Source: Nageia nagi (lineage: Eukaryota > Plantae > Pinophyta). Taken from it: a stretch of DNA of 64,000 nt. This document shows, in pieces, positions 2,176-64,000 of this stretch; the first letter of the stretch is position 1; every line of letters starts with the position of its first letter. The notes below the pieces were generated by a model. The model did no database searches. It was not told the DNA's origin and was given only the letters and a program-made list of their open reading frames with translations. The stretch covers positions 133,858,001 through 133,922,000 of the forward strand of contig JBITNC010000001.1 of NCBI GenBank assembly GCA_050084985.1. Reading direction: 5' to 3'. The position numbers and the translations under genes were made by a program.

Positions 2176-2808
2176 TCAGATGTATCTCCTCTAAAGAAAT
2201 CCAACCATACTACAAGAGTAATTGTATTATCCATGGTTGAACACGTTGAAGACATTAACAAAATATCCCTTCTTAAAACCTATATGCTTTCACTTTTGCT
2301 CTCAGATGTATCTCCTCTAAAGAAATCCAACCATACTACAAGAGTAATTGTATTATCCATGGTTGAACACGTTGAAGACATTAACAAAATATCCCTTCTT
2401 AAAACCTATATGCTTTCACTTTTGCTCTCAGATGTCTCTCCTCTAAAGAGATCCACCCATACTACAAGAGTAACTGTATCATCAATAGTTGAACCCGTTG
2501 AAGACATTAACAAAATATCCCTTCTTAAAACCTATATGCTTTCACTTTTGCTCTCAGATGTCTCTCCTCTAAAGAGATCCAACCATACTACAAGAGTAAC
2601 TGTATCATCAATAGTTGAACCCGTTGAAGACATTAACAAAATATCCCTTCTTAAAACCTATATGCTTTCACTTTTGCTCTCAGATGTCTCTCCTCTAAAG
2701 AAATCCAACCATACTACAAGAGTAACTGTATCATCAATAGTTGAACCCGTTGAAGACATTAACAAAATATCTCTTCTTAAAACCTATACGCTTTCACTTT
2801 TGCTCTCA
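2176..2808. repeat. Tandem repeat, 126-bp unit x5
   Basis: Units start at 2176, 2302, 2428, 2554 and 2680; near-identical, with two subtypes (units 1-2 vs 3-5). Confidence 0.97.
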
Positions 2809-2864: not shown

Positions 2865-3015
2865 TCAAAACTTCTCTTGTCCAAGCAGCATGCCCATGCT
2901 TGTGAAGGAGTGGGTCAAAACTTCTCACGTCCAAGCAGCATGCCCATGCATGTGAAGGAGTGGGTCAAAACTTCTAATGTCCAAGAAGCATGCCCATAAA
3001 TGTGAAGGAGTGGGT
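2865..3015. repeat. Tandem repeat, 50-bp unit x3
   Basis: tcaaaacttct..gtccaagcagcatgcccatg..tgtgaaggagtggg at 2865, 2915 and 2965. Confidence 0.93.
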
Positions 3016-24900: not shown

Positions 24901-27900
24901 AGACTCTTCATGACTTCCAGTTGGATGACTACTTCATGTACATTGAAACCGATTGTGGTTAATGATTGTATTTGGCAAAGAAATCAGTCTCAAACTAGAT
25001 CTTTCTTACTTCACAAATATGTAAAAAGTTCTTATCTCTGTTGTATCTATTTGGAGGAGAACTCTCTTACTTTCTCATCTTCTTCTCTCTTACTCGTTCT
25101 ATCCCCATATTGCATTAAGGGGGAGTGTTGGAATATATAGTGCATTATTGTAAAGGTTGTATTAAATCTTCTATGTAACTTCACTAATACTTAAAGGTAT
25201 CATTTGATCCCTTAAGTATTTTACTGAATATAATAATAAAACTTGTCCTACACTTCATGTCATGAGCATGCCCCTTGGGTCAAAAGATGTGCATGTCATG
25301 CTTAGGTGATCCTAAGAGGGATTTTGGCCTATAAATAGAAGGCTCCCTCTTTGTAATAATACACCAATTGTGGAGTAAAGTTATGCTATAAGATAGAAGT
25401 GTAGAAGTTGAGATTAGAAGGATTGTAAGAAACTTGTATTTGTGATTGAAGTAAAGATTTAGTTAGTGGATGTACTTCTAGTTGGAGGAACCACTTCACA
25501 TCTTGAGTTCCTTTGTGAGATTGTCTTGTTGGTGAAATTGTTGGATGTGAATTTTAGAGCTTTCATGTGATCTTGGTAGTTTAGGATTGTTCTTGTTATA
25601 GTTCAATTCTTTCAAAATCCACAAAGATGCATTATATAAGCAAGTTTGTTTTCAAGTTCAATAATACACTTTCTGTCACCAGAGTCTTCCTGAACAAAGA
25701 TTCGATGAAATCTCAAGACTTAGAGGTCCATAGTCTAAAGACTGAAGTTGGTGAAGTTAAAACAATTGGGACAAAGAGAATCTAGGATGTCACCAAACTC
25801 ACCAGGGAACTGGATGAAAGCCAAGAGAAATGAAGCCCTGAAGGAGAAACCACATCTCCCAATCCAAATCATCTCCAAGACAAGGTGGTCACAGACGGAC
25901 AAGGGCATCTTAAACAAGAGAATGAAGAAGGCTTTGGGCCAAGTGTTACAGAAGCAAAGAAGATGGACATGTCTAAGTGCACCTAAAAAGCATAGAGGCG
26001 TGATGTTGCAGTTGCAACAATTTTATTTTGTTTCAATTTATTTTAAATTTGGATTTTAAAGACTTATTAAACAGTACAACCTTGTGACAGATGAGGATTT
26101 GCTCCCACAAGTGCTGGAAAAAATATTGTAATGCCATGTGAATTTTCATTGAACCACTTTCAATTTTCTTGAAATTAGCATTAGGGTTAGGGCAACACTT
26201 GGAGTTGCAATGAAAAACTATTTATACCCCTCGAATGCTCATTTTAAAAGGGGATGGAATTTTTGGATGTGGTCATAAATATTTGCTAATAAATGAGTAG
26301 AATAATTTTTCCTATCAAGAACTTGTCTATTACGAATAAGGCATGATTTTTAAGTTGAATTGCACAACTCCATTTCTATGTTACTATGCGCTTGGATATG
26401 TAATGTTATCATTGATGTGTGTTGCTTAAATACTTGGAACATTTTACAAACCTCTTGAGAGGTGGGTGAAAGAGTAGTTGAATATCTTTTCGAAGTGTTG
26501 AATGTGATAAATAGTTAATGATTGTTTATAGTAAGCAACTAGACTTGTATAACTTTGAAGTGTGTTTCCCTATGATGTTTAACATGAGAGCTTCATCCAC
26601 ATGTTGAGAGTGTCATCCTTGTGCTCCCTTAGATGCATGCTCCCCTCACTAGACCATTCATGTCATTGGCTGGTGTGAGTGGATATTCCTACTTTTGGGA
26701 CATTCATATTGTGGATGCGTGGAACTCAAAACAAACCCAGAGGAACTTGGCATTCAAACATTGTACCAGACGATGGAGCTTGATGTAAAGAGCTGAACTC
26801 ATAAGTCCTTAATCCATTTCCAATTTTCCTTCCTACACCTTTTTCTTTACTTTTCATTTTTTCCACAGCTTTCACACCCCCTTTTATTTATTTATTTATT
26901 TACAGTATTTAAGAAACAACCCTTGTCTAGACACTAAGACAATTCGAGTCCTTAAGTAACAAATTTTATTTGAGTTGGTGTCAGCTTCAAATATCCTAGC
27001 CAATCTCTGCATCTTGTTCTTGCACATCCATCCAAGAGACCTTTGAGGTAACCAGTCCTCATAGCAAGAGTAAAGCCCTTCCAACTAGGTGTTGGTTTCT
27101 TTGTGAGCCATGCAACTTATTTGCCCATTAGCAAGGTAGGAAAGAAAAACTACCCAACAAGATCAACTTCATGAAAACCTACCAAGGGTCAAACCCTTCC
27201 AAACATTGTTGTAACGAAGACTTGAACTCTAAAATTATGTAAGGAATGTTTCTTACATGAATATGTGTTATGAAATACTCCATGTCAAGATTGGAGGTTA
27301 CAAAGAGTGATAGAGAAGATTTGTAGCCTTAAAACCAAATTCTCAGCAATTGAATGTAGTCATGTCCACCATGAAGAAAACAAGATAGTGTATACACTGG
27401 AAAACTAGACTTTCCAAAGTGGAGACTTAATCTACTATCCAAACCCTCCCAGATGATGAAGTCAACCAATCAAGGAAGATCTTTACAGTATTTTATGCCT
27501 TGATGATAATCATATTGATCCAAGTATTTCATGATTCAAAAGACCTTATTAGATTCATGTCTAAGTAAAATAACTCAATGTAATTAGAACATTATTATCA
27601 ATCATCTACAGAACTCTGGATGAATGCCCTGTTTGCTTGGAAGGGCAGAAGATATAAATTACTTGATCACTTTAACTATTACAAAGCTTTTTACATAAAA
27701 AAAAAGAATATGTATGTTATAAAATATGTTTAATTAAACTAACGAAATATCCAACATAGACTTCAGCTTTTCTAGTAAAGATGTGCTAACCCTACCAATT
27801 GACGATCACGTATTGGAGTCCATAAGAACACATTCCCCCGTTTTGGGAACACCTTGGGGAATGTTTTTTTGGCATTCCTTGTTTTTGGGGAATGAACCAG

Positions 27901-39900: not shown

Positions 39901-42900
39901 AAGTGGACTGCAGTTACAGAATGGATGAGAAAGAGAGTGAAAATACAGACAAAATGACAATAGCAGAAGTGCCCTGCAATATGGAAATAAACTTTAATTT
40001 TCAGACAGGTAAGTGAGAGTGACTGTAATATCTCCAATTTGGGACATCTAGACGTAACCCCTCATGCTTATTTACTTTAACTTTTAGTGTTTAAATTAGA
40101 AGTCTTCTATTTATCATTTAAATATAATTTATCATTTAAGTAAAGGCAATATGTAATATGTTTTGGCTCAGTTAAAAGGGCCACTTTAATGTATTTAATC
40201 TCTCACACCTAGTCGGCCAACTCAAGGAGATATTGGGCCACTTAGTAATATTTATATCCTCCTACTTGGTCGGCCAACTTGAGGAAAAATATGTAGTGAG
40301 TTTGAGATCATATAAACGCAGGTTAGAGAATCACTTGAAGGATCATCATTGTGCATTCGATTTTGGATCATTCGGAGTTTAAGGATGCTTCCCTTCTCTA
40401 CCTTCTAAGGACTAGGGCTGCTCCCTAGCCTAAAAGTGACCTATCTACATTCAAACTCACTTGGAGAGCTTGCCAACCTTGAGGAGCCATCTAGAGACTT
40501 ACGCCTACAATTCTTGCCATTTGGAAGCTTGCACCAGCCATTGGGAGTCATGTTGGGACATACACCAAGCTTGGGAGCTTTCTTGGGTCTTGCGCCAGCC
40601 TTTAGGAGTCTTGGTTGAGCATCTTCAAAGTCTTGGGCTTTTGCCCTAGAACTTGTTACAGCCCTATACTTATTCTTGGTTAATTGTACGTAACATTAGC
40701 TCTCATAATACGTCTTGTTGTGCCCGCACAACACACCCCAAGATGCAGCATTTTGAGGACCCTATTTTTGCAAAGGCAATGAGGTGCAATGCCTTGAGAT
40801 TGGCTTTTGACGATGATTAGTTCATTCTGAAGAGTGTAAACATGATATCAGGGAGCGGTTCAAGGAGATCATACGACGAAAACCCTCAAGAGCATCAAAG
40901 TATCCAATCGTCAATTTTGCAACCAAGGAGCCAAGATGTAAGACCTACTACCAGAGCACAAATTTTTAGCTCTAGAATGAGATTAGTAGAGATGGGGTCA
41001 TTTTGGGTCAATTTTGATCCCGGAAAAGGCGAGCATAACCAAAAGGTGGGTTTTGGTCACTTTTGGGCTCGAAAACCTGGAAAATGGTCAACATCACAGA
41101 AAAGCGCATTTTCGTCAATTTTCAACCTAGAAGTGGTCAGTATGGTAAAAATGAGCGTTTTTGCATAGTTTAAGCCCGGAATGCTCGAAAATGAGCAAAA
41201 ATGCAAAGTTGAGTATTTTTGCCGAAAATGTCTAAAATGCCGGAATGATCATTTTTGCACATCTTGAGTACGAAAAAGCCGAAAATGTAGACTTTGAGCT
41301 CAAAATGCTGGAAATAATCAATTTTTCACCATTTGAATTCGGAAATGTCCGAAAATGGTAGAAAATGCATACTTCAAGCCTGGAAATGTCGAAAATGCAC
41401 CGTTTGGGCCCGTAAGAGACGGAAAGGACCAGAATTGTATAGTTGAGCCCCAAATGGATCAGAAAAGAAAGTTTGAGCATCCTTGGGGGATGAAATCAAG
41501 AAATAAGCGTTTTGACACTCGGGCAACCTCAGGTTGGGCCTAGAAAAATGGGTTTTTTCAAAATGCTTGAAACGAAAATCTGAGAGAAAGGTGTGATCCC
41601 AAATGATAAATAAAGGCAACTTTACTCTTGGAAATTTCGAAAAAACTTGAGTCTCGCCCTTCGAAAAGTTAGGGAGGAGTTTTGCAAGTTTTCCCTCACT
41701 TTGTCAAAACTCAAAAATGGCCTATTATCTTCAAAACCTGTGCCTACCTTTTGAGAGACCCAGATTGATCCAAAAGTGCAATTTTTGAGCTTGAGATCAT
41801 GGAAATTGCGATTTTACATCAAATTGGTCTTTCAAGTTCGCAATTTCGACAAGTTTTGCTCCTCCAAAAGTGGAAAAAAAGGAAAATGTGCAAAAAGGAC
41901 AGCCAAGAGGAATGCTTCAAATTTTCCAAAATTTCAAAATATCAAAATGAAAATTTGAGAGAAAGGCGTGATGCCAAATCTAATTTTAGGCACCTTTGCT
42001 CTTGAAATTTTTGAAAAAAAGTCAAAAAATGCCCTCCTAAAAGCTAGGCGGCAGTTTTGCCTCTTTTCCCTCGCTCAAATTTGGAAAATGGCCTAAGAGT
42101 CTCAAAACCTACACCTACCCTTCCAGCACCCCAAAACAGCAAAAAAATGAAATTTTTGATCTTCATGAGGTATAGGATGGGATTTCACACAAGATTTATT
42201 ATTTGAATTTTCCAAAAGAAATGAGATCTAATTCCTCAAAATCATCAAAAAATGATCAGCCAATTAGAGAGCTCTAAAATTTTTCAAATTTTCCAAAGTT
42301 GGCCAAATCAAGAAATAAGAAAGAGGTAGGGTAGCAAATCCAACATAGAACAACATTGCCTCTTAAAATTTGTCAAAAAAAACCAAATTTTGCCCCTCAA
42401 AAAGTTAGGCCGCAGTTTTGCATGATTTCCCCCATTTTCTCAAATTTCCAAACTTGCCTAAAACCCCCAAAACCTGCGCCAAGCTTGGAGGCTCTCAAAA
42501 TTGTTTAAAAACCGAAATTTTTGGTCCTAGGGACACGGGAAATCCAATTTTGCACAAGTTTCATGTTTTAAATTTTAGAAAAAAAGTGGATCTATTCCCT
42601 CAAAATCACAAAAATTGGATCAGCCAACGGGAGAGCTTGAAAATTTTTTTAAAATTATCAAAATAAAAATTGGAAAGAAAGGTAGGGTGGCAAATCCAAA
42701 GTTGAGCAACATTGCCTCTTGGAATTATTGAAAAAGCTCAAGTTTTGCCTTCCAAACAGTTAGGGGAGAGTTTTGAAAGTTTTGGACATGTTCACAAGTT
42801 TCCCAAACATGCCCAAAACCTGCGCCTAGAATCAAGGGGCTTAAAATTTGTCAAAAGTGAGATTTTTGAGCTTCATGGGGTGTAAAATTCAATTCTACAC

Positions 42901-45900
42901 CATTTTGGTCTTCCAATGATTTGGACAAGAAAAAATCCTCCAATAGTGGATTTGCCCTCCCAAAATGGAGAAAATCACAAAAAAAAAAGAGAGAAAACTT
43001 CAAATCTTCAAAATTGTGCTTCAAGATCCAAAATTTTAAAAATAAATTTTGATGATTGATTTGAGTACCCATTGCCCTTGTGAAGAAAAGTGATTTGGAT
43101 CCATAAAAGTGAAGAAAAACACAAAAAATTCTCAAGATCTAAAGGCTGAAAATCTTCACTTTTTCAAAAAAAAATGAAAAAAAAAAAAATTGGAGATCAT
43201 GTGTAGAACAAGGATTCAAACACTTTGGCTTTTGAATTTTTTGAAAAAAGAGCAAAATCATGCCAATTATGCCTAGACGCTCATTTTCCAAGTTTTCCTA
43301 ACTTTGGCCATTCTTCTCAACATTGGGAATGAGTGGAAAACTCCCAAAATGCCCCCTCATGAAAAAGCCCAAATCCAATGCATAGAAGCTCCAAATCCTC
43401 TCAAAACTTCCCAAAAACCTTAAAATCCCATCTTTCATCCATCCATGGGGTTAAATCCACTTTTTAAAAATTTTCCAAATTTTGGACCCCCCCCCCATCT
43501 TTTCCGAAAAATAGACCAAAAATTCACCTTTTCAGAAAATTTTCTCAAAATTCCTTCAAAATTTACCTGAATGATCACATCAAGGGCAAATCCTAATTGA
43601 AAGAAGGAGCTTGAAATACTGACGAACAGATCCAAAATAGCGATTTAAAGCTCCAAATTTTGCCAAATTGATGCAAAACACCTCGAAATCCATGCCAAAG
43701 GGCATCAATTTTTGTAAATATTTTATTTCAAGTATATTTTAGTGGGATGAGTATTGTTCTCCCACTAAACGACATTGTAATTTCAATTTAGCATTTTAGT
43801 GTTTTTCTAAAAATTAAGGCAACACTTGAATATTTGACCTAATTTTGCCTATAAATAAGAGGCATGGGATCTCATTTTCACTAGAGCTCACTTCGTGATA
43901 AAATTGACACTTTGTAAGAGAGGAGCAAATTGATGTATCCTTGCACAACTCTTTTACAAATTAATACAAAGTGGTTAAAGAAAAGATCGAGCTTGTTTAT
44001 TCATTTGTGGTTTTGAGAATTGTTTCTTAAGGATTATCATTGTTCGTTTGACACTTTCGCGTCCTTCCTTTGAAAACTCGTGAGTTTTAGGGAACATATC
44101 TTTGATAGTTGCTTGGTTCACAACATGCATGTTAGATAAAGTATTCTTAATTTGTTTCCTGTTGTATGACATCAAACTAGAGATTTACATCCAAACTCTT
44201 GTTCTTCCCATATTCTTCCACCACGTCCATTTGGTTGCATCGATCCTGCTTGCAATGTACTGACAATCGGCATTCCTACCCGCTCCTCTTTGGAACAACT
44301 CGAACATAGTTGTTTGTTCGCAAAGTTCGATGAATTAGATGAAATCCCTTAGCTGATCTGAAAAGGATGAACTTTTTAGACAATGCTTTGTCATGGTGAC
44401 CAGTTTGGTATCTGACCAAGTATCCGTTTCCGTTTCACAAGTGTAGTCTCTCACTTTCCAGTATTTTATTTATGCTTTCTTTATGTTTTCATACCCAAAT
44501 ACAATCGTCAAGTCCACACACAAATATTCCAAATAAACTCTATACATCAAATAAAACATGTTGGTTAACAGATTGCTACCTCTCATTCCATTCCATTGAG
44601 GCTGAATCCAAGAGGGATACCACACTTAAATTATACCACAAACAAGCTTGAAAGGCATACCTATAACGTCACAACGTTGGGTTGCTGAGTAGGGTGTTTC
44701 GACAACCTTGGAGGTATAACGTCCTTTTCAAACAGGGGAATTGGTCATGCATTCCCTACTATGTTGCTTGGGATCTCCTAAGTTCCACAAGCAATTTTCA
44801 AAGAGTCTCCGTGGGAAAGAAAAGCATCCCAACATGTCTCAAATGTGTATGAATGTTCTCTATTTACTGCTGTAATATTGTTGTTGATTATGCAGGAGAA
44901 TATGTGTGGATTATATTGTTTTGGAGGCATATTGATGTGGTGTAACAGATCTATAATTTGTACCCTAGTCTGAGCATATTTGCATATTGTATGAGCTTTA
45001 TATCAGATTTGGCTACAGCTGTTATATTTCAGTTTTGAGCTCATGTTTGGATGGTTAATGAGCATTTACTTTGATGCTCTAATTTGTGAATGAATGTGGA
45101 ATTAAGTAAAGAATTGGATAAACTCTAGAAAGGTACATCACAGTGAGTAACAGCTATAAATTAAAAATTTAGATTAGGACATGCAAGTTTCAAATGGAGA
45201 ATATTGCCTTCAGAATGCTGATTTGTGTACCATTTCTTTTCTTCTTCTGGGTCATTTCTGTCATAGTCGCATTTTCTCAGAAATAGTTGTGTATGTTAAA
45301 GTCACATAAACATGTAAAAACGATAAATGGCCACAGTTTAGTGAATGTGCAGAGATGGACAGAATGGGACAACAAATGGTAGCAACAAGATACAGAACTT
45401 GAGTAAACAAGTTTTTGCTTCAATAGCTTCAGTTCTTACCGTCTTCTTTGCCCATGTAATTTCTCAAGATTGCCAATGAAAAGAAGGCATTTACTGACAG
45501 CGTGAGATGAGGACTAGGACATGAAAAACAATAATCCAACATATTGATCAAAACCTTCAAATAAAAAACTCTTCATTTGGATGAACAAGACCTACTGCAT
45601 TCTAAAAGATCAGGAAAGATGTGCATTTCATCCAGAAATTTTAAAAATAATCAAGACTAGAACATAAACCTAAATGAATACTTCAAGTCGTTAATGATGA
45701 CATGCTGTTTATAAGCTATTGTTTAGTCACCTCCTATGTAGTGGTGATATAAAAGCTCTTTTGATATATAGACAGCTGATTGTAGCCTTGCCAACCATAC
45801 TATGAAAAAGAATCTTTGCATTAGTTATCTTTCCACTCTTATTAAATGGTAATTATATACATACCATCAAGTTGTTACTCTTGTACCAATTAAGGTCAAT

Positions 45901-49743: not shown

Positions 49744-50708
49744 CTGTGAAACATGAAGACAAACAATTTTTAAAAAGTATGTAAAATAGAATTACTAAAA
49801 ATATACAAAACAATCTTACCATGCACAAATATAAGAAATGGCAATAATTATCCCAAGCAAAGTGAGTTTGTGATCCATTTCAGCGATGAATAGATGTCTA
49901 CTAAAATTTAAACCTTAAGTTTCTCCACACACCTGAAGGATGCACTCTTAGTAATGTTGGAAAAATTATAACGTAAAAGGAGGAAATAGTAGAAAGTAAT
50001 AAAAGATTACGGCGAAGCACAAGAAGAACACCCATGTAGTACAGAATATATTTTTAAGAACAAAAAGATGAAACCTTTAACTCCAAAGGATCAAGCAGCA
50101 CACTAACCATAAATGACAATTTTCACCTACACGGATATGTCCAACACAAAACACAAAGCCTATAGAACTGTCTAGATGGATAACAATATCACATCAACAT
50201 GCAAGCTATATTAAACTGAGATCTTGGAATCTCCTGATTTATACTAGAATTTAAGGAAAGAATGCCATGGGAAATGTAAACAATATAAGCAACGCCATAC
50301 ACAACAAGCCCAATGCATCATTCCTTAGTCTTAAGACATAAGTCAGTCCAGATGCACTGAAATTCAAGATTCAAGGTCTAAATATGCTGCACAGACAGGA
50401 TGCAAGGAATGTGTTGTTGATACTGTTGTGTCTTACACAACTCGCCCCTAAATTTTGCAATTTTAGGGACCCTCGACAATCTGGAGCCTTGAATGTCAAG
50501 TCAAAACCATTCCCCCTCATCTCCAGTAAATCCTAAATTAAGCCCATGACCCTGAAATTTAAGTGCAATCGCCTTTCCAGCCCTGGCCATCTCAAATCGT
50601 AAAGTAAAACCCTCGAAAATCGAATAAGTCTGGCCGAGTATAGATTAGGTCTAGGTGAAATAGGGAAGTCCAAGTCATGTTCAAGCCGAAACGGACGGAC
50701 CCAAGCTT

Positions 50709-51676
50709 GGCCATGCTCCACGAAGACAAGATTGTGTCTTTCTGGGACATGCGCCCAACCTAGAAGGAAGCCTGGCTTCGAAATTAAGTCCCAAAATGCA
50801 AACTAGGCCACTCCTTGATGGCCTAACGCATGCCATGAAAAGACAAAATCTTTTCTTTCTAGGACATGCGCCAGGTTAAGAAGGACCTCAAGATGAAATC
50901 AAACATGAAAAAGGACAAGTTAGTGCATGAGAAGACTGGTGCAAGCCTTAAAAACACAAAATCTTCTCTTTTGGGAGCATGCGCCCAAGCCCAAAGGTTG
51001 TCAGGGAAAACTTGGAGCCCAAAAAGAAGAAATAGACTCACCTAAGGGGTTGGCGCATGCCTCGAAAAGACACAATCTTGTCTTTTGGGAGCATGCGCCT
51101 AGCCCAAGAAGCCCCCAATCGAGGATGAAACTTAGAATTTGGCTAAGGCTCAGAGTTTTGAAGCCTAGAGCACACTCTAGCATGACTAGAGAGGTTGGCG
51201 CATGCATCCAAAAAACAAAAACATGACTTTTTGGAGCATGCACCAAGCCTGGGAAAGCACCAAGGTGGAGCAAGTATGGGAAAATGACTAAGTCCATGTA
51301 TCAAGAGGCCAAAACAAGGCAAATCTGGCCATTTACAACCCAGCGCATGCCACGAGAAGACAAGATTATGAATATTGGGAGCATGCGCCTAGATTGGGCA
51401 AGCTCGAGAAGTTGGAGGGAGTTTCAAAAAGACAAGATCCTATCTTTTGAAACCATGCGCCAGGTTTGGGAGGCACCTTGGGTCAAGTCAAGATGAGAAA
51501 ATGAGCAAATCGAACCCTAGAGAATTAAGCACCAAGCAAAATCAAGCTCAGGGCAACGCTATAGGGTCAAGTTGGACGAGCAAAAACACTAGAAGGGCCA
51601 ACGTGGGGAATGCAACCACCCCAGGGGCTGGTGCATGCCTCAAAAAGACAAAACCTTGTCTTTTGGGAGCATGCGC
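50709..51676 (+). repeat. Array of eight ~46-bp imperfect palindromes with unique spacers
   Basis: Consensus GCGCATGC-N4-AAAAGACAAAATCTTGTCTTTT-N4-GCATGCGC; CATG-to-CATG distance 36 bp. Confidence 0.9.
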
Positions 51677-51834
51677 CAGGCCAAAAGAGCCTCCAGAAAC
51701 CCAACGATTGGTCCCAGACGGCCAGGAATAAGGTTTCAAGATGGCACACATCTCAAGGTCGGCCACTTCAATGGTTGAGATGTGTTTTTCTCCAAAACCT
51801 AGCCAACTAGGGTCTTCAAAATGCCCACATCAGC

Positions 51835-51842
51835 TATAAATA
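51835..51842 (+). promoter_or_regulatory. Putative TATA box for the internal ORF
   Basis: gctataaata lies about 180 bp upstream of the ORF and is conserved at the same position in copy D (60605-60612, minus strand). Confidence 0.55.
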
Positions 51843-52023
51843 TCAACTTGCGTACCTCATTTTCCCAAATTCAAATCGCACTCCTATTCTACACTTGCGC
51901 TGAAATTGCAAACTTTTGAGTTTCAAATCCGTCCATTTGCTTGGGGAGGCTTGCGCAAGAGATATAGAAGGTTACGAGCAAGACGGGGGGGTCATAGGCT
52001 TGCCAAAAAAGCACCACATCACC

Positions 52024-55000
52024 ATGGAAGGTCCCCGTCATTCATCAGGGCACTATGACTAGTTCCAAAAGCAATTCAGCCAAGGATTATGCACGAGATC
52101 TGGAATACATCAAGCAAGAATGCCTCATTACCATATGCGAGCAATAAGACCCCTTGCCCCAAGGGACTAAATTCTCCAAAAACAGGTTGGCCACTATTGG
52201 GGACACAGATTGGCAGAAGGTGGATCTGATGCAAATGAGGGAGAAGATCAAGAACAAACCCATCAGTGAGTTGAAATAAGACATCGTCTTCTTCTCGAGG
52301 CTCTCGACTTGTACATTCGTCCCATTCACAGCTCCGTTCCCAAAGTTGTGCTTGGAAGTTGGCTAGCATTGGAAGATGGGAAGAGAGTGCTACGAGACAT
52401 TAAGGTCAACGTCATCATGGACTTCAGCCCCGAAGGCATCAAGAAGGCATTCCAATGGATTGCAGAAGGCAACTTTGAATACACAAAAGAGGAGTTGTTG
52501 GCATGCTATCGGGACACCAACAGAGCAACCGGAGCAATCATGAGTTGGATGTTCGAGGAGCACCATGGCCTAAAGGGAATGCACTTATCAATGCCCCTCG
52601 CTCCCACTTCTACCCCTCTATTCAATTAATGATCCTCATGTTGTCAAGAGTTCTCGGGAAGGAGGATGCATCCAAGTTCCAAAAGGAGTTCTTCGTCTTT
52701 ATTGTGGAGATAGCCCGAGGAAAGAAGATCAAGTGGAACAAAGTGTTAAGCGACAATATCATGGACCAGTTGTCATCAGTAGGAACCACACACAAGTTCT
52801 ACCTCAACTCCTACCTGGTATACCTATTACTACAAGGCAAACCGAGGCCCACAACTTTAGGAGAGGCGGACTTGATCACAAAGGGGACATACGTAGTGTG
52901 GAAATGCTATCCTGAATGGAAGGTCGAGAGGAGATGAGAAGACTTCACGATGAGGAGTGATGGATGGACGTACGAAATTTACAAGGAGCTTAAGGGAGAG
53001 ACTATTGTTGCTAGGATCTCCAATGCAGCCCAAGATGCGTTGAGGAGACATGGAGACTTCTTCACCCACCACTAACATTATTCCTACATCCGTTTCTATG
53101 GGTTGGCTGTGGAACCTTATCAACTACCTCGGTATGTAAGCTATCGGATGCTCCTGATGGAGATGATGAGGCAATTAGTCTACTTGCATGAACATGTTTG
53201 GCAAAAGAAGTCAGCCACTTCCAATCTACCGATTACGATTTGGGAGTATCAGTGTAGAGCTTGGGCGGATGTGACTTCAATGATAGAGGAGTTGGCGAAG
53301 TACAACTTCCCGAAGATGCCAGCCACCAATCACTATGACCCTCAACATCGGACTCATTAGTTTTACATGAAAGAAAGGAAGAGAGCTTATGAGCATAGAC
53401 CACTCAAAGATGAAGAGCCATTCCAAAACATCAGTGCTGAAGTGGAAGTGAAGAAGATCTACGCCAAGATGCAAGAAGAGGCTCGGAGGCAACAACAAGA
53501 GGTAGAGGTGTCAATTCATAAGAAGTTGTCTCAATCTCGGGGAAAGAAACCACACAGATCTACTTCCAGGGTCATTCAGTTTCTACCAACAATTGGAGAG
53601 CCTATTGGACAATATGCCTCCATGCATGGGAGGGCCCCACTTGAGCAGGTAGCACAGTAGGTTAGGGAGATGGTTGATGAACATGACATGACGGAGTTCG
53701 AGCATGTGCCCACCAATAAGATGGTGAGATGTGTGAGGAACCAAAGACCAGATCCGACTTCGCATCAAAGATCGGATCCAACTCCGCCCCAGAGACCCGC
53801 AAGGATAGCAATGGCACATCCATCCTCGATCATTCCACGATCAAGATCAGAATCCTCAGGACCTCAATACGAAGAAAATGGAACCCCTCATGGAGAACAA
53901 GCATATAGATAAGAAAATGGTGACCGACAAAGCATGCTTGAGGAAGGGGAATATGAAAGTATTCCGCAAGACGAGTCAAAGGAGGGGCTAGGAGATGAAC
54001 ACAAACCCAATACCGTTCCAGAGAGAGATATACACGACGCACAAGGTGAGGAAGAACCATCAATGGAGATCTTGAACGGCACCCATAATCATGCCACCTC
54101 AGAATCGTCGACCTCCCAGAGGAAGGAGAAAGACCTCACTTCAAAGTGAATGCCGAGAAGAACCCATTTAAAGAGAGGGTTCCAGTCCAGGTTGTCGATA
54201 ACACCAGGGGAAACTACAAGGCAAGGTGAGAGGCCTTTGAAGAAGATTTGGAACACAATCGTCGTTTCAGAAGCAATTGTTGAGACCCATAAACCTCTGC
54301 CCAATCCTGAGTGGGGAGTAAACATAGACGAGTGTCTCGATGTCTTCAACATGGATGTGGGACTAGAATTCAGACCCAAAGGGACAGGAGATCAAGTTGG
54401 AGAGAGTTCCACTCGCTTGAGGAAGAGTCAGACCTACGTACATATGACAAAAAACGTAGTGTGCATCAAGACCATAGTGGCAGACAAGGTCAACCCCCAG
54501 GGTCCCGGAGACTTGAGGCATATAAATCAGATCATCAACACGGGCCCAATTGGTGTCATTGGCAGGAAGCATGCTATTATTTCGAATACCGAGGCAATAG
54601 CCAAGGATGGGTTGTTGAAGGAACAAGAGATAAAGAGCTTGAAGGAGGAGTTGGCAACCTAGAGGAGATTGACTCGCGAGTTAGAGTTCGCCAAAGTACC
54701 TACAGATGACCTCAAGAAGGTAAGACCTCTCAAACAAGGAATGATTATTGTGAAACAAAAGGTGATGGAAAAGGCCTTAGCAATGTTGAGACGATTCATC
54801 GATATCCTCCACCAAATCTCATTCACAGAGGAGCAGCTAAGGTATATTCTCACCGAAAGGGTCAAGCTACTCAGGATCTTGGACTCCCAGAAACCCATGA
54901 TACTAAGATACGAGGCGATGCATACTCAGAGACCTGAGGACACAAAGTTTTGTGAGGATTACTGGTTTGATTTGGGTGTAAACAGCCAAGTACATACCCA

Positions 55001-55387
55001 TTTCTAGGAAACGAAACAAGGGGTGACTGCAATTAATGAAAATGTCGATGCATGTATAGAACGGATGGAATTTCAGGTACAATTCTTGGAGGAAGACACC
55101 ACCATCTAGGAAGCAGATGAGGTAGTGGCCAAGGTCAGACACCTTCTCCTTAGCCTGATGATGACCAAGGATATGAACTCCTACCAAACAAGGACTCACT
55201 TGGGGCATATGCTGCAGGCCCAAACATGGAAAAATGAAATGCAAAGGATGGTGAATGAAGCCGAGGAGAGCATGAATGCCAGCAGACCAAAGTTCTCATA
55301 GATGTAAGTGGGGTGGAGCACATGACAAAGTTCCTGGCAGCCGGGTTTGAAGACCGAGTTGCAGGCTTGGGCCCACCATTAGCCTAA
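52024..55387 (+). pseudogene. Decayed ~1,100-codon retroelement accessory ORF (non-gag/pol; acidic linker, coiled-coil-like C-terminus)
   Basis: ORF pieces 52309, 52503, 53103, 53367, 53670, 53934, 54150 and 54669 are collinear and homologous to minus-strand pieces in 57470-60445; start and end approximate. Confidence 0.8.
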
Positions 55388-56611
55388 TCATTTTTATTTT
55401 CAGTTGTTTTATTTTCACATCTTCCAGCTAGACATTCTAATATTATTTTATTCCCAAACTCCTGAAGGATGAGGATTTTCTCCCACGAGTTTGGAGGAGA
55501 TATTGTAATGCCATGTGGCAAATTTTCATTTGATCCCCTGTTATTTCGTGAATTAGGGTTAGGGCAACACTGTTGGTTGCTCCTAACATTATTTATACCC
55601 CATTCTGACTCATTTGTAGAGGATTTGACATTTTGACATCTTAATACAACTTTGTTGTGCCAAATTGCTCTTAAGTGTTGAAGGTGGTGTATGTGGATGT
55701 TATTGTAATGATATACTTGTTCATGTTGCAATAGTGGATGTGAATGAATGCTAGATAGTGTTATTTGTTTTCCTTCTATCATTACTTGATGTTAACTAAG
55801 TTTACTTGGTGCATTTCATAAACTTCACTGTAGTGGATGAGAGGTTGCTTGCATATCTTGAGAAGTAATTCACTAATATCTCGTGGGTGGCATTTCACTA
55901 TTGGCAATATTGGTTTGATGATCTTGGGATGTCTCATTGATGTTATTCACCGCGAGGACTTCACCTGAGCCCTTTAGTCCAACCTTGGTCTCGTCTTATC
56001 TCACCGCCCTAGCTTCACGCTCCGTTCACCTAGCTATTCGTGTTGTTGGCTAGTGGACTAGATAGTGGGTGCTTGGAACCCACATTGAACCCAAGTGAGT
56101 CGACTTCCAAGACTCTTTATCAAGCCCATGAATTAGCGTGTCTACTCTTGCATCATGTTACCACAGTCTTTCCACCATTGTATCTTTCTTTATTTTCTTC
56201 TATTTTTCAATTTTTTTCACCGCTTTCGCACCCCAATTTCCCTTTCAGCACTCAAGAAACAACCTTGGTGAAGTCTAAACACAAAATAACTCAAGTCTCT
56301 TGAATCCACACATGATATTCATGTTGATGCCAGCTTTAAACATCTCAACCGTCCCCTGGGTTGTTCTTGCATAACCCACGAAGTCGAACCTTTGGGGTAA
56401 CCAATCCCCATAGCGGGAGTAATGTACCTCCACCTGAGATGTTGGCGCTTTTCCCAGTACTCTAGGGTAGGAAAGGAAACCCCCCACCAGATACAAGGAC
56501 CCGAGAAGACAAGCTTATGAAGTTATGACCATGCAAATCATTGCACAATTTCTACACTCGTGATGTCTTAATTCAACCATGATATTTTTTTTGGTAGAAC
56601 TTGCTCACTAG

Positions 56612-59600
56612 TGTTGGGGTTTTTTCTTTCCTACCTTGTTAATAGGCAATTGAAACTGTAAGGCTTGTGGAAAGATACCAACAGCTGGGTGGTAGGGCAT
56701 GACCCCTACCCGCTATGACGACTAGTTACCTCAAAGGTTCAGTGATGTAATATGCAAGAGGTTACTCAGGGGATTGGTAGGCACGTTTGAAGCTATCTCC
56801 AACTCAAATAGTATTTGTTAACCAAGGACTCGAAGGGTCCCTGTTCCCAGAAATGGTTGTTTCTCAAAAGGAAAAGAAAAGTGAGGTTGCAAAAGCTGCA
56901 CAAAGAAAATGAAAAATAAAGAAAAGGGTTGAGAAGAAAGTGATATATGAATTCAGCACATGAGTTCAATATTCTCACTGACTAGTATGGGTTTTTAAGA
57001 CTTGGCTCTCACGAGCTTGACACAAGTTCCAGGACTTCGAAGCTTGGGGCTACGGCGATGGAGGTAAAAAAGGGTGAAACGTGGGTAGACCTTGATCAAG
57101 GGAGTGAAGTTCCTATACTAACCGACATATGCAAGCCATCTCAAAGAGCACAAGTCCAAAGTGCAAACTATGAAACATTACACAACCATGCATTACTTGA
57201 AGTACTTCTAAGGATATTCAATCACTCTTTTGTCCACCTTAAACTAGATTTACAAAATGTACCAAGTATTCAAGATAGCATAAGAAAGTAACACACATTC
57301 ACATTCTTAGTTTCAAATAAGAATATTCGCAATTCAATTACTTGAAGTATATCACATTCACAAATTAGGAAAACTTGCAAGCTTGAAAATATTAGGTAAG
57401 TTGTCCAATTTGCAAAATGTCTAATCCCTTACAAATGAGCCCTAGTGGCTATAAATAGTTTTACGGCATCATCATCAATGAATTTTGAGCTGCGCAAAGC
57501 CATGGACCCCCTATATTACACCTGGAACTCCATCTGCTCGAGGCTGGTGTTAGCCTTCTCATTGAGCTTTTCGACCTCCTTTTGCACCTCCTAGAAACGT
57601 GTAGCTATCTGGTTGACAACACCCAAGTAGAACTAATACTGTTAACAAAACTTCACATCTTCGGAGCTCCAATCATGTGTCATCTTGAACTTCATGATCA
57701 TTGGCCTTCAAGAATCCAAAATCCTAAGACAGTTGGCTCTCTCCACCACAATATCCTTCAACTTCTGCTCTTCGAATGTTACACTCTGTAGTGCACCAAT
57801 GAACTGTTGTAATGCTACCAAGACCTCATCAATTTCTCCCTATTTCACTGTAATCATGCCCTCTTTAAGTGACTTTATCTTTCGAAGCTCCTTCGTGGGC
57901 ACCTTAGCTGACTCCAATTCTTTAGTCACTTTCTTACGTGCAGCTAACTCCTTCCTAAGGCTTTTAATCTCCTTTTCTTTAATCATCCCATATTTGGTAA
58001 TTGCCTCAATGTTGGAAATGATTGCATGTTTCCGGCCAGCCAAACAAATAGGACCAGTATTGATGATTTGGTTGACCTGTCTGAGATCTTCAGTTCGTTG
58101 GGGATTCTCCTTGTCTGCGATTATAGTCTTGATGTGAATTGCGTTCTTGGTCAAATGCAAATAAGTCTAGGTCTTACTCGGGCAAGTGGAGCTTTCTCCA
58201 ATCTGATTATTCTCTTAACCCATTCCAAACTCCTCCCCGACATCCATGTTGAACACGTCCACACACTCTTCCATATTAACTCCCCATTCATTTGTAGGTG
58301 ATGGCTGATGAGTCTCAAAAACTGCCTCCTGAATGGTGTTGATATTCTTCTTGGCTTTCTTTGAAGGTCTCTCTTCTTCCTCACCAAGCTCTTCCGAAAC
58401 CTCTATGGTCCGTGACTATGAAGTCCTCTTCAATTTTTCTTTTCTTTGTATTGTTTCTAAGGCTGGTTCCTTACCCTTCTTTTGGATGGTTCTGAGGTAG
58501 CAGGATTTTGGACTACCATCACTATCTCCAAGGATTCATCTTCTTGTTGTGTATCAGGGATGTCGTTGTGTTGAGATGCACTGACTCCTTGTTCTTCTTC
58601 TATCTCACCCACTTCTCCTTCTTCCTCATGGTTGTTAGGTTCATATGCGAGGACTAGTGGATGCAGACCCAAATAGCGGAATGATTGGTGATGGACGTCC
58701 AGTTGCTTCTCTAGGTGGTCTTGGTGGTGGGGTTGGATCCTTCTCTCTGTTCCTAACACACATCACCATCTTGTTCGTGGCCACATGTTCAAGCTCTCTC
58801 ATGTGCTCATCAATGGTGTCCCTTACTTATTTTGCATTACCTGTTCTACTAGGTTCTTGCCATGCATTAATGCATACTGTCCAACAGGTGCTTCAACCGC
58901 GGGAGGAAACTGGGTGACCCTAGATGTAGACTCTTGAGGTCTTCTTCCCTTTTGTTGTGACAATCTCTTATTGATAGTGGTCTCAACAAGGTGTTGTTGA
59001 TCATGGGCATCTTTATGCATCTTTACACAAATCTTTTTAATCTCTACCTCGTTATTCACATTTCGGAAAGGTTCCTCTTCTCCAAGTGGTTTGTGCTTAT
59101 ATGCTTTCTTCCTTTCCTTCATAAAGAGCCAGTGCATCCTGTGGTTGAGGTTATAATGGTCGAAGGCAAGAATTTTCTTGAAGTTAAATCTCACCGACTC
59201 TTCCTTCATAGTGTCAACGTCTGCCCCAGACTTACACTGGTATTCACCTACTATAATCAGCAAATTTGAAGTAGCTAATTTCTTCTACCACACCTGTTCA
59301 TGTAGATAGGCCAACTACCTCATCATCTCCAAAAGAAACAACTGCACGGTTGACCCATAGATTCTGATATAGGAATAGTTTTGGTGATGGAGGAACAAGT
59401 CCCCATGCTTCTTCAAAGCATCCTGGGCTAAGTTAGAGATCCTTGCCACTATGATTTCTCCTTTGAGCTCCTTGTAGATCTCATACTCCCATCTATCGTT
59501 CTTCATGATGAAACTATCCCATCTCCTCTCGAGATTACATTTAGGGTAGCATCTCCAAATGGCATAGGTCCCTTTCTCGATCAATGCCAATTACCCTTTT

Positions 59601-61393
59601 GTCATGGCCTTGTACTTGTCGTGAAGCAATATGTACAACAGGTACAAATTGAGTTAGAATTTGCTAGTGGTGCCTACGGATGATAATCGATCAGCAAGTG
59701 TGTCACTCGACACCTTACTCCACCTAATCTTTTTCCCTCCAACAATTTTGATAATGAAGCCAAAGAACTCTTCCTTCTCGAGAACTCTGGACAACATCAA
59801 GATCATCAACTCAACCGAAGGGTGGAAATTGGAATAAGAGGCATTTATGAGCGCATTACCCTTAAGTCCATGATGCTCGTCCAACATCTAGTTCTTGATT
59901 GCAACGACGACCCTGTTGGTCTCTTGATAGCATGCCAGTGATTATGCCTAGCTGTACTCGAAATTTCCCTCTAAAGTCTACTGTAACGCTGTTTTGATGG
60001 CATCGAAGCTGAAGTCCATGATGATGTCTCCTTTGATGTCATGAAGGACTCTTCCCCCCCTTTTTGCCAATGATGACCAACCTCCATGCACAATTCAGGA
60101 AACGGAGCCATGAAGGGTATGCATGTGCATGTGGAGAGTCCAACGAAGAAGACAATGTCTTGTTTGAGGTCACTGACGAATAAATCACAAATTTTATCTC
60201 TCATTTGCATAGGGTCAATGTCTTGCCAATATGTGTCTCCGATGGTAGCAAGACCGTTCTTTGAGAATCTGGCCCCTTCAGGAAGGGACTCTTGTCTTTC
60301 CCAGATAGGGATGACAAAATCTTGTCTCAACCGCTCGAGGTCCCTAGAAAAATCTGAAGCCAAATTGCCCTTGGGAGTAGTCAAAGTGTTCAGGCTTACA
60401 ATGAAGTCTCTCAAGGGTGACGCGAGGGTTTCCAATTGGTGAAGACACCCTACGTTGGATTGGTTTGCCCCTCTAATGCTTGCGCAAGCCCTAGGATGAA
60501 GTATGATGGGATTCAAGCTAAAAAATCTGCAATTTCCTGCTACTTTGGCGCATAAGTGGAAGAGGAGCAAGTTTGAATTTGAGAAAATGAAGTCCACAAG
60601 CTTGTATTTATAGCCCAAACTGGCTTTGCCACTAACCCTAATCGGCTAGGTTAATGAAGCAAACTTGATCTTAGCCATCCGTCTGGCCAAACTCAAGATG
60701 TGTGTCTGCACCAAAATTCATGTTGCATGTGACCAGACGTAGGGGTTTTAGAGCTCATTCTGGCCTGGCGCATGGCCAAAAAAGACATGATTGTGCCTTA
60801 TTGAATCATTTGCCAACCTTGGGGTGAAGCATGCTCCAAACGTTGGCCCTTTTTGCTCGCTTGCTTGTCTTGACCGTGAACTTGCCCTATGACCTGATCT
60901 TTCCTAGATTTTGGTCTTTTTGGTGCCTAGACTTGTCGAATTTGATCTTTCATCTCAACCTGGGCACTCCTCAAGCTAGGCACATGATTCCAAAAGTCAT
61001 GTTTTTGACTTTTGAGGCATGCGCCAGCCTTTCCTGCTTGTCCAACTTGGTCACATGGTTCAAAAAGACATGATTGTGTCATTTTGAATCATGCGCAAGC
61101 CTCCAGATGGCCAATTTTTCGTAGTTTCATGCTTTTTTCTCCATGCCTTTGCCAAAATTTCCCCCTATGCTCGATCTTGAAGGCTTCCTGGGCATGGCAC
61201 ATGGCCAGGAAAGTCACAAACATGTCTTCTGGAATCATGTGCCAACCCTCCTGGGTGTGTTGGTCTTGGTTCCGAGGTTCTGGGCTTCATGCCTTAGTCA
61301 TTTTCTTAGTTGAACAAATTAAAAGCCTTTTTGGCCTGGTCTCACAGTTCAAAAAGACATGATTGTGTCTTTTTGAGGCATGCACCAACCTCC
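56612..61393 (-). mobile_element. Giant-LTR family type P, copy D (5'-truncated), tail-to-tail with copy C
   Basis: tgttggggtttttttctttcctacc terminus; ORF homolog; five palindromes at 60768-61385. Confidence 0.88.
57470..60445 (-). pseudogene. Second decayed copy of the accessory ORF
   Basis: LATIGDTYWQ, LMILMLSRVL, HGDLF..YSYIRIYG and INTGPI..GRKHAIISN match copy C. Confidence 0.8.
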
Positions 61394-64000
61394 TGGTATT
61401 TGAAAGGAAACCCTTCCTCTTACTCCACGATCGCCCATATGATCAAGATGGGAAAGCGACCCAGCATGTAGGTGAGAACGCGTTACTGAAAGCTCATGCC
61501 GTTAATACGAGCTTTAAATTGGTAGGTCTTGTTTGGGAATCAACTGACTGGTGTAGTAGAGGTAATAACTGTTAACTCACATTTTTTGTAGGGACTAAGG
61601 TGTGTTATCTTACAATACTTCGAAAGTTGTCATAAGTTTTTAAAGAAAGTATATAATAAAGAAAAGAAAAAGTGAGAATGAGATCGAATACTAGCTAGAC
61701 TTCAAAGAGGTAATCGCAATGCAGCATTGTCTAATTACTCTTTCTCTCTGATCAGTTAAGAAATCTTGTTCAATTCAATAAAGTCCTTGAAATGAATGAC
61801 TATTGTGCAATCATTCCAAAGATGAGTGAGAAGCAGAATTGATTATCAGTACTCTGTGAACAAAACCGTTGCAACCAAGTGGACAAACTGTGAGTGAAGG
61901 TGGATAGTTTTGAACAAAATATTTCGGAAGATGTCTTAAGAGAAAATCAATTCAAAATACTATGCACTTAACAAGCAAGTGATGAATTAGCAACAATTCA
62001 AGACAATTCAAACATTTTCAAAAGTTTACAACAAATTCTCCTAAAAATCGAAAGTTTTCAAAGAGAAGGCACAAAACGATTTGAATTACAATAATTGTCC
62101 TTAAAAGATCAATCCACCACTCCCATAGATGAAAACACACTTTGAATCAACTTGTAGCCATTTGTATTATGTTTGCAAAAGAGAATTGCATAAGTAGATC
62201 AATTTGCTCCTCAATTGCAAAAAATTTCAATTTTGAAAAAGATTGAAAATTTCTTGGATTACAACATTCTACCTCAAAATGTGACCCTCTATGGTCTATT
62301 TATAGACATTTTACATCAAAATTTGAGGGTGTTGCCCTAATTCCTAAAAAAGCTTTAAAATGCTAATTTGAATGCTAAATTGAGATTACAATATTGTTTT
62401 AGTAAGAGAACAATCTTATCCCATTCAAATATGCTAAAAATAAAATATTTACAAAAATGGATGCCCTCTGACATGCATTTCAAGGTGTTTTGCATCAATT
62501 TGTCGAAAATTGGAGCTTCAAATCCTCGTTTTGGATCCTTCTGACAACATTTTGAGCTCCTTCCTTCTTTGAATCTAGATTTGCCTGTGATGTGATCATT
62601 GTGGCAAATTTTCAAGGGATTCTAAGAGAATTTTTTGAAAAAGTCGATTATTTGGTGTATTTTTCAAAAAAGAAAAAGAGGGATCCGAAATTTGAAAATT
62701 TTTTAAAAAGTAGATTTGAGCTTATGGATGGATGGAGGATAGAATTATAAGACACTTGGCAAGTTTTGAGAGGTTTTAGAGCTTTTTTGGGAGGTTTTAT
62801 GAAGGATTAGAGATTTGGGCAATTTTTTCCAATTTCACGTCTATGGATTTCGTTTGGTAGAAAAAAGTGAAATTTCCATAGGAATGAAAAATGCCTCTTA
62901 GATTTTTGAGCCCTTTAACTTGCTCAAATTCAAAAATTCTCAAGTTAAAAGTTGCTTAAAATGTGCTCTTCAATACAATGAAGCCAAAATTTTCGATTTT
63001 TTGAGCAAAATTTTCGATTTTTTGAGCAAAATTTGATGTTCCTCCTAGAGTTAGGTGCAAGTTTTCACCTCATTGGAATTCCATAAACTTGAAAAACTGC
63101 ACCTATCTATTTGTTGCTTTTAAGTTGCTCAAATTTGAAAATTTGAAGCATTAAATATTCTCAAAAACCACTTTCCTTGCAAATATGTCAAAAAACTTGA
63201 TTTTTGGGCAAAATTTTCACATTCTCCCATGTTAGGCACCAATTTTCAGGTCTATGGATTCCCAATTGCATGAAAATCTTTGCCTTCTTTTTTGAGGGGT
63301 TGCCATGGCCTAAAATTAAAAATCTCAAGTGTTAAATGTGCTAGAAATGCCTTTTTCTATGCAATGAAGGGGTCCAACTCGATTTTTGAATGAAATTTAT
63401 CAAATTTTTCCAACCTAGGCGCCAAAATTCAGTCCTATGGGTCTTCAATCAGCCCCAAACCTACGCCTAGCTTTTTGTGCCGCCAAACTTGCTCAAAATG
63501 AAAATTTGCAAGTTTAAACCTTCTCAAAATGACCTCCATTACGTACTTATGTCTTCAAACTTGACTTTTGATCATAATTTATCAAATTTTTTTCACCCTA
63601 GACGTTGTTTTCCATTTTTTTGGATTTCCATAGCCTTGAAAAACTGCTCCTAGGCGTTTGGGCATCAAAACTTGCTCAATTTCGAAAAATTGAAGGTGTA
63701 AATGTGCTAGAAATCATCATTTTGACTTAATGAACACCTCAAACTTGATTTTTGATGAAATTTGCACTTTTCCCTCCAAGTGAGGCGCTACTTTTCACTC
63801 CTATGGATTAAGAAAAATTAGGAAAACTGCGCTTAGCTTTTAGGTGCCCAAAAATAGCTCAAATTCAATTTTTCCAAGACCTAAAGGTGCTCTAAATGAT
63901 CTTTTCACCCAATGAAACCTTAGAACTTGTGTTTTGATCAAAAATTATCAATTTTTTTAATTCTAGGCACCATTTTTCACCCCATTGGTTTTGGAAAAAG
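61394..64000 (-). mobile_element. Giant-LTR family type S, copy F (runs off the window; 3' terminus lost at the junction with copy D)
   Basis: 62440-62600 is the reverse complement of about 43560-43725 of copy E; tatttatag at about 62297; satellite-like array follows. Confidence 0.8.
62870..64000. repeat. ~183-bp satellite-like tandem array (at least 6 units)
   Basis: tagg(c/t)gc anchors at 63052, 63233, 63416, 63599, 63782 and 63964 (periods 181, 183, 183, 183, 182). Confidence 0.82.

Follow-up and report, generated by a model that had tools for sequence, protein, structure and literature searches.

A 6-kb mobile unit, probably a gymnosperm solo LTR with an accessory gene inside its U3

Can a plant retrotransposon carry a gene, together with its own promoter, inside its long terminal repeat (LTR)? 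This question is raised by a unit of 6,066 bp in the window, the whole stretch of 64 kb of DNA that was analysed. MMTV sag, HIV nef and foamy-virus accessory genes overlap U3, so that their coding sequence is present in both LTRs; these are genes of vertebrate retroviruses, their ORFs are much shorter than that of the unit, and their proteins are unrelated to it. We consider it probable that the unit is a solo LTR of a gymnosperm Athila/Tat-type Ty3/gypsy element with an accessory gene inside U3.

Ends, internal order and coding content of the unit

The boundaries of the unit read GATAC followed by TGTTGTG at 50424 and CCACCA followed by GATAC at 56489, which confirmed the TG..CA ends and the perfect GATAC target-site duplication (TSD) of the preliminary description. 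At local composition, one fixed pair of ends would show a perfect 5-mer with P ~0.0015, and both ends are set independently by terminal motifs found family-wide; the 5' terminus is common to 7 other starts, located in the window and in metagenome loci L002, L003, L004 and L006. The unit is thus a single repeat unit flanked directly by GATAC on both sides and bounded by TG..CA termini, the configuration by which a solo LTR is recognised. No second copy of either end was found near the unit, and an Asn-type primer-binding site (PBS) motif, with up to 2 mismatches allowed, had no match within the window. What gag-pol sequence the window contains comes from two other elements, one copia (17346-25614, whose paired LTRs are 490 bp) and one gypsy (ORFs 32103-36726). 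In contigs of the public sequencing runs, 30 of 30 bins of the unit were covered in each of the 4 runs compared (5 listed), and the unit therefore belongs to a repeated family; the depth of these contigs is unreadable as copy number and was taken only as coverage.

Table 1. Positions of the unit, its parts and its relatives in the window
Feature	Position	Strand	Remarks
Whole unit	50424..56489	+	6,066 bp, TG..CA ends; probable solo LTR
Left TSD, GATAC	50419..50423	+	
Right TSD, GATAC	56490..56494	+	
5' terminus	50424..50471	+	Family-conserved, ~48 bp
Array of 8 imperfect ~50-bp palindromes	50708..51681	.	Cores 50722-51644; mostly 113-145 bp spacing
TATA1	51835..51842	+	TATAAATA then CTCATTT; conserved in D, L002, L003, L004
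Decayed accessory ORF	52055..55301	+	ATG 52055 to TAG 55299-55301, ~1,081 codons
N-terminal globular domain	52200..53030 (approximate)	+	Homologue models predicted VANC21/PMD-like
Charged linker	53700..54300 (approximate bounds)	+	Low hydrophobicity
Second promoter module (TATA2)	55434..55635	+	TATTTATA at 55590; conserved across all family tails
Tail, presumed R-U5	55636..56489	+	Ends in family-conserved GGAAAG..CCA(A)CA terminus
Copy D	56612..61394	-	Array, TATA1, ORF, TATA2, tail; 65% identical over 2.2 kb
Unit F, ORF-less relative	40716..44834	+	4,119 bp; same terminal motifs, different U3 repeat type
Unit B+C, ORF-less relative	15727..27159	+	~3.16 kb without insertion; split by copia element 17346-25614

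The internal order was as first described: palindromes, a TATA box (51835), a decayed ORF, a second TATA-like module (55590) and a tail of 0.9 kb (Table 1). Eight palindrome cores were observed, whereas 500 Markov simulations averaged 0.74 and never exceeded 4. The palindrome half-motifs were confined to the 5' 1.4 kb (15 and 18 matches), the ORF having a single match to each and the tail none. We infer that the palindromes are candidate binding sites. TATA1 is a putative promoter of the accessory ORF. In all 10 tails compared, the TATA2 module is 738-1,028 bp away from the 3' end, and it would be the main LTR promoter. Reading TATTTATA at 55590 as a minus-strand TATA box was rejected because sister subfamilies carry TATAAATA on the same strand at the homologous position.

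The accessory gene is dead in this copy, with two frame changes (near 52370-52380 and 52575-52590) and 12 in-frame stops across three translated segments (3, 0 and 9, respectively). Between the ORF and that of copy D, differences at the three codon positions amounted to 20/23/51% towards the N terminus and 33/23/57% towards the C terminus. Likewise, dN was 0.16-0.63 and dS was greater than 1.3 or saturated in 10 of 10 pairwise comparisons among five ORF copies. These patterns of substitution indicate that the ORF is a real gene, formerly under purifying selection. In a library clustered at 50% identity, 188 representatives matched the ORF at E values up to 0.001; an organism name was attached to 1 of the 14 homologues looked up, a hypothetical protein of Taxus chinensis, which suggests that the host is a gymnosperm, probably a conifer. 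No Pfam family matched any of the three ORF segments (P0001-P0003), and no gag, pol, transposase or integrase domain was detected in them. Together with the missing PBS motif and second end, this bore out the earlier statement that the unit lacks gag, pol, a PBS and a second LTR. The Pfam families of the PMD/DUF1985/VANC domain group (PF10536, PF09331, PF20167 and PF03078) matched 0 of 29 aligned homologues and 0 of the 3 segments, and none of the 29 had a PMD, ATHILA or Transposase_32 match. In a scan for the transmembrane segment that an env-like extra ORF would have, the maximum 19-residue hydropathy was 0.78, with no value above 0.8, over the 892 residues of P0001, a scan that begins beyond the first ~190 residues.

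Relatives in the window and in metagenome loci

Relatives of the unit lie elsewhere in the window, and the claim that its architecture recurs in copies A, B and D is to be qualified (copy labels may differ between the two accounts): copy D alone keeps the ORF, and it has no recognisable 5' end. In a profile search of the 64-kb window, the N-terminal domain of the ORF was found only in the unit and in copy D. Copy A (6720, minus strand) is a deleted copy that contains an inverted piece of the second module. B lacks the ORF: its start at 15727 and the tail at 26077-27159 are probably one ORF-less unit interrupted by the copia element, with flanks of GGGTC/AGATC that match at 3 of 5 positions and give a weak TSD. 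A reading of B and this tail as unrelated halves facing apart was dropped, since the two pair up across the copia insertion. Unit F is flanked by CGTCT/TGTCT, which match at 4 of 5 positions (1 mismatch). It matches L006 in its tail and L007 in its U3 repeats, and both of these loci carry the ORF.

A metagenome scan gave 8 loci (L001-L008) of 2.6-11.3 kb, each too short to span a pair of 6-kb repeats and the internal region between them; no related loci were found in the viral_contigs or genome_contigs collections. L002 and L003 contain the 5' terminus of the unit, followed by the array, TATA1 and the ORF, and TATA1 lies 1,331 and 1,420 bp, respectively, from that terminus (1,411 in the unit). 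L004 and copy D run from the end of the array into TATA1 and the ORF. The 3' half, composed of ORF, TATA2 module, tail and CAACA end, is present in D, L006, L008 and the upstream element of L002, with protein identities of 20-60% among the subfamilies that carry it. ORF-less forms of 1.75-4.1 kb retain the family termini; one is a unit of ~1.75 kb nested in L006, whose 3' end lies beyond the contig. A skip from 51717 to 54982 was present in 2 contigs of run X3. The tail of L001 is inverted relative to its ORF, and this arrangement was disregarded, being probably an artefact of assembly or amplification, because the ends carry 100% identical inverted duplications; the 3' end of L001 was retained among the 11 ends counted below.

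Because the 5' and 3' halves recur colinearly in independent contigs and the ORF-less forms share their termini, the architecture is replicated as a unit. By comparison of these copies, the family is defined by a fixed 5' terminus, repeats and a fixed promoter and tail, with an optional TATA1-ORF cassette between them. The window is crowded with nested and truncated family pieces, and a 5' and a 3' fragment from two insertions could have come to lie next to each other with a coincidental 5-mer on both sides. We regard this scenario as highly improbable, as the ORF is continuous from the 5' half into the 3' half, copy D and the metagenome loci share the linear order of the unit, and the TSD has the low probability given above; the colinear copies alone largely refute it.

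Solo LTR, single-unit element or deletion derivative

Integrase-type ends, a 5-bp TSD and a TATA box ~0.9 kb from the 3' end are hallmarks of an LTR. Every family member has the TATA module with its 0.9-kb tail, and the ORF sits upstream of these and downstream of the 5' terminus; therefore, if the unit is an LTR, the ORF is in U3. The proposed mechanism is that the TATA2 module would start the genomic RNA, which would make 50424 to ~55615 the U3 region. The ORF would then be carried at the 3' end of the genomic RNA and be copied into both LTRs during reverse transcription, while TATA1 would drive a separate ORF mRNA. Recombination between the LTRs would have excised gag-pol and left the unit. 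Taken jointly, the fixed termini with TSD and colinear copies, the selected and now dead ORF, the U3 cassette and the LTR-LTR recombination form an account that we hold to be likely.

The junctions of the family with an internal region were sought at its ends. Among the matches listed, seven loose ends had sequence past the family 3' end, and one of the seven read CCCAACA, five bases and then TGGCGCTAGAAGGA. We take TGGCGCTAGAAGGA to be the complement of the 3' end of plant tRNA-Asn, and hence PBS-like; a literature search for the string returned nothing. In long sequences, a PBS followed 0 of 11 3' ends and a polypurine tract (PPT) preceded 0 of 8 starts, as expected if solo LTRs dominate. 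With fewer than ~5 solo LTRs for each full element, linkage of 0 of 19 termini to a PPT or PBS would be unlikely (P 0.05); with 10-20 it becomes acceptable (P 0.19-0.41). None of six PBS motifs was detected in L001-L008, and the pattern of LTR end plus PBS had 0 matches in viral_contigs and genome_contigs. The bare PBS motif occurred in 2 GC-rich, phage-like contigs without similarity to the window and was attributed to chance. No gag or pol was linked to the ORF in any of the 8 metagenome loci. The pol of L007 was rejected as the parent pol because it runs into a PPT of its own and then a different LTR, as was the integrase piece of L004, which abuts the array. Paired copies around gag-pol were seen neither in the window nor in the 8 loci, which are too short to contain them.

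An Athila/Tat-type parent would suit the PBS-like junction: members of the OTA superclade (Athila or TatII) have a tRNA-Asp or tRNA-Asn PBS that starts 0-5 nt beyond the LTR, and the spacer at this one junction is 5 nt. The REXdb table lists Asn-type PBSs in Athila (12%), TatII (15%) and Retand (4%). In the gymnosperm lineage TatII, extra ORFs in sense orientation flank the polyprotein on its 5' side (23%) as well as on its 3' side (26%), in the available part of that source (PMC6317226). An ORF borne in the LTR could produce this two-sided sense pattern.

The same results allow other scenarios. The units could be complete single-unit elements with integrase-type ends that move as one piece, such as a DNA element mobilised in trans, in which case the ORF would be their own accessory factor and the array its binding sites. 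This would account for 0 of 19 termini adjoining an internal region in long sequences and for an ORF without linked gag or pol in 8 of 8 loci, where the integrase pieces of L004 and L007 look unrelated and nested. A VANC-like gene next to a repeat array is also the layout of VANDAL DNA transposons, as described in the accessible text of PMC5735166. We nevertheless judge such an element unlikely: one junction is PBS-like, the terminal inverted repeat is just 5-7 bp, all tails have an LTR-like TATA box 0.7-1.0 kb from the 3' end, the ORF is without a detected transposase or integrase domain, and the Atlas leads point to extra-ORF domains of retrotransposons.

Alternatively, the true LTR could be the short ORF-less form (start, array and tail, 1.75-4 kb) or the ~1-kb tail. 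The ORF would then be internal, and the 6-kb unit would derive, by deletion or recombination, from a full-length or non-autonomous element. ORF-less forms do exist (F, B+C, the nested unit of L006, copy A and the skip in run X3), and in plants, extra ORFs that have been described with promoters and repeat arrays of their own are internal, as far as the accessible portions of PMC7264820 and PMC11963269 extend. We find this quite unlikely, however, as it requires two deletions, one that removed the 5' tail and PBS and one that removed the PPT and 3' start, and both must be identical in subfamilies with saturated synonymous sites. Moreover, no PBS or PPT remnant lies beside the ORF in the unit or in D, the scan of the eight loci for six PBS motifs was negative, and the short forms are explained more simply by loss of the cassette. 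The opposing case named at the outset, an LTR of ~1 kb with an internal ORF, is disfavoured by this two-deletion requirement and the missing remnants. The giant LTR with a transcription unit in U3, as originally proposed, thus has in its favour the fixed termini, the colinear copies, an ORF formerly under selection and one PBS-like junction; against it stand 0 of 8 starts with a PPT and no sighting of a two-repeat element with gag-pol.

Predicted function and relation to known systems

Models of ORF homologues predicted a VANC21/PMD-like fold for the N-terminal domain, which is 8% identical to VANC21 (PDB 9LNK). Foldseek searches of the PDB and of viral structures and a PDB sequence profile gave no match, with the C-terminal region outside the models. 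Atlas leads for the ORF protein point toward retrotransposon extra-ORF domains. A VANC-like function was not among the earlier claims, and the fold prediction goes beyond them. We put forward the tentative hypothesis, to which we give somewhat less than even weight, that binding of the protein to the palindromes protects the promoters from silencing, including those of ORF-less relatives. It would bind as a dimer or oligomer and counter DNA-methylation silencing in cis and in trans, and the short ORF-less LTRs, which retain an array, would depend on protein supplied in trans. In the F/L007 subfamily the repeats are of a different type and the ORF is ~37% identical; these differences are compatible with joint divergence of protein and array, although kin would share both traits in any case.

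It is doubtful, in our assessment, that a gymnosperm Ty3/gypsy lineage moved a whole VANC-type anti-silencing module (effector gene, promoter and palindromic target array) into U3. If true, every solo LTR would by itself form a complete unit of epigenetic counter-defence, one that outlasts the main route by which the host removes such elements, ORF-less relatives would be desilenced in trans, and protein and array would diverge together between subfamilies. Like the unit, VANDALs have repeated non-coding motifs adjoining the VANC gene, whose product the N-terminal domain resembles by fold prediction, and their motif type differs between subfamilies with diverged proteins, as it does in the family of the unit (PMC5735166, in the text available; PDB 9LNK). 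In contrast, VANDALs are Mutator-like DNA transposons of eudicots, whereas the unit is an apparent gymnosperm retroelement, and the 9-bp motif bound by VANC21 is non-palindromic, whereas the candidate site in the unit is a palindrome of ~50 bp (PMC5735166, same portion). The unit may work like VANC, yet it is no VANDAL, with no transposase, a 5-bp TSD and TG..CA ends.

Closer comparisons are found among plant retrotransposons, each cited as far as the source was available. Retand, Grande and RIRE2 of the Tat clade have, like the unit, an accessory ORF with its own promoter, a product predicted to be DNA-binding or nuclear, and adjoining family-specific arrays; unlike that of the unit, these ORFs are internal, downstream of pol and before the 3' LTR, are mostly antisense and are lost on solo-LTR formation (PMC11963269, PMC7264820). 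In Retand, whose LTRs are 315-1,194 bp, the arrays as well as the ORFs follow pol and precede the 3' LTR (PMC11963269), whereas the cassette of the unit is in sense orientation between the 5' terminus and the last promoter. A review places the additional ORFs of plant elements in the internal region (PMC7264820). Ogre elements share multi-kb LTRs (1.9-6.5 kb) and a 5-bp TSD with the unit (PMC6431247). Extra ORFs of the PMD/ATHILA type (PMD-A, Athila ORF1 and Transposase_32) are also described, and the portions available place no extra ORF inside an LTR, in contrast to the position proposed for the ORF of the unit (PMC6317226, PMC6431247). Retrosat2, RIRE3 and RIRE8 (Tekay) resemble the unit in LTRs longer than 3 kb, many solo LTRs and an extra ORF, but their ORF0 lies upstream of gag-pol and is treated apart from the LTR, with a solo:complete ratio of 2.6 (PMC3485330). 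No LTR-located ORF was found in the accessible parts of PMC11728184, PMC13477047, PMC11539532, PMC2633040 and PMC13468544, and no plant element with a gene inside its LTR was found in the literature searched, with Repbase and subscription journals outside its scope; REXdb element files may contain some. Long LTRs and PMD-type extra ORFs are thus each known, and what is likely new is that the terminal repeat itself holds the gene together with its promoter and array.

Solo-LTR formation is taken to remove all coding capacity. A gene borne in the LTR would survive it, being present twice per full element, and each such recombination would leave the accessory gene and its array behind as a possible self-protection cassette. 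If the protein works like VANC, the unit would offer a direct test of what plant PMD/ATHILA-type extra ORFs do, because a candidate binding site, the 50-bp palindrome, adjoins the gene; such activity, if true, also bears on the persistence of these elements in giant gymnosperm genomes. Coding LTRs of 6 kb could distort solo:intact counts and would be mistaken in annotation for host genes or unknown repeats, an example being the homologue from Taxus that is named a hypothetical protein.

Clustering and further pieces of the family

Members of the unit's family were frequently nested in, or adjoined, one another, both in the window and at two metagenome loci, L006 and L002. A short family unit lay within the ORF of another at L006 (1-1687), 31 bp separated two units at L002 (2817-2849), and in the window (56489-56612) the unit, a putative solo LTR, and copy D, its ORF-bearing relative, were tail to tail with 122 bp between them.

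An additional long LTR-like piece, kin to the tail of the ORF-less unit F, terminated at the array of copy D. Positions 62371-62784 of this piece had a 79% match to 43386-43795 in the unit F tail. The 5' end of copy D may be masked by insertion of the piece at the array. In copy A, a deleted relative, the array end was joined directly to the post-ORF region, and the second module was locally inverted. Two extra family tails were also present.

Features located in the window
Feature	Positions	Strand	Remark
126-bp repeat	2176-2808		5 copies
50-bp repeat	2865-3015		3 copies
Copy A	5014-6720	-	
Extra family tail	10127-11179	+	5' half not found
Extra family tail	14143-15200	-	5' half not found
Ty1/copia element	17346-25614		decayed but full-length
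Ty3/gypsy gag-pol	32103-36726		decayed
RCC1-repeat segment	45996-46322	-	coding
LTR-like piece	61395-64000	-	

Putative promoter modules

The modules at 51835 (TATA1) and 55590 (TATA2) were alike: in each, TATA was followed, after approximately 12 nt, by CTCATTT, and TAGGGT lay upstream. Duplication of the LTR core promoter may have given rise to TATA1.

Probable host gene segment and other repeats

The RCC1-repeat segment (Pfam E 9e-14) probably represents a host-gene exon, and the insertions around it may be located in introns of that gene.

The Ty1/copia element, with paired LTRs of 490 bp that were 92.9% identical, was inserted in the ORF-less unit B+C. The Ty3/gypsy gag-pol retained capsid, protease, RT, RNase H, and integrase; no connection between it and the unit's family was found. 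The copies of the 126-bp repeat had 97% identity and were within an open frame of 219 codons.
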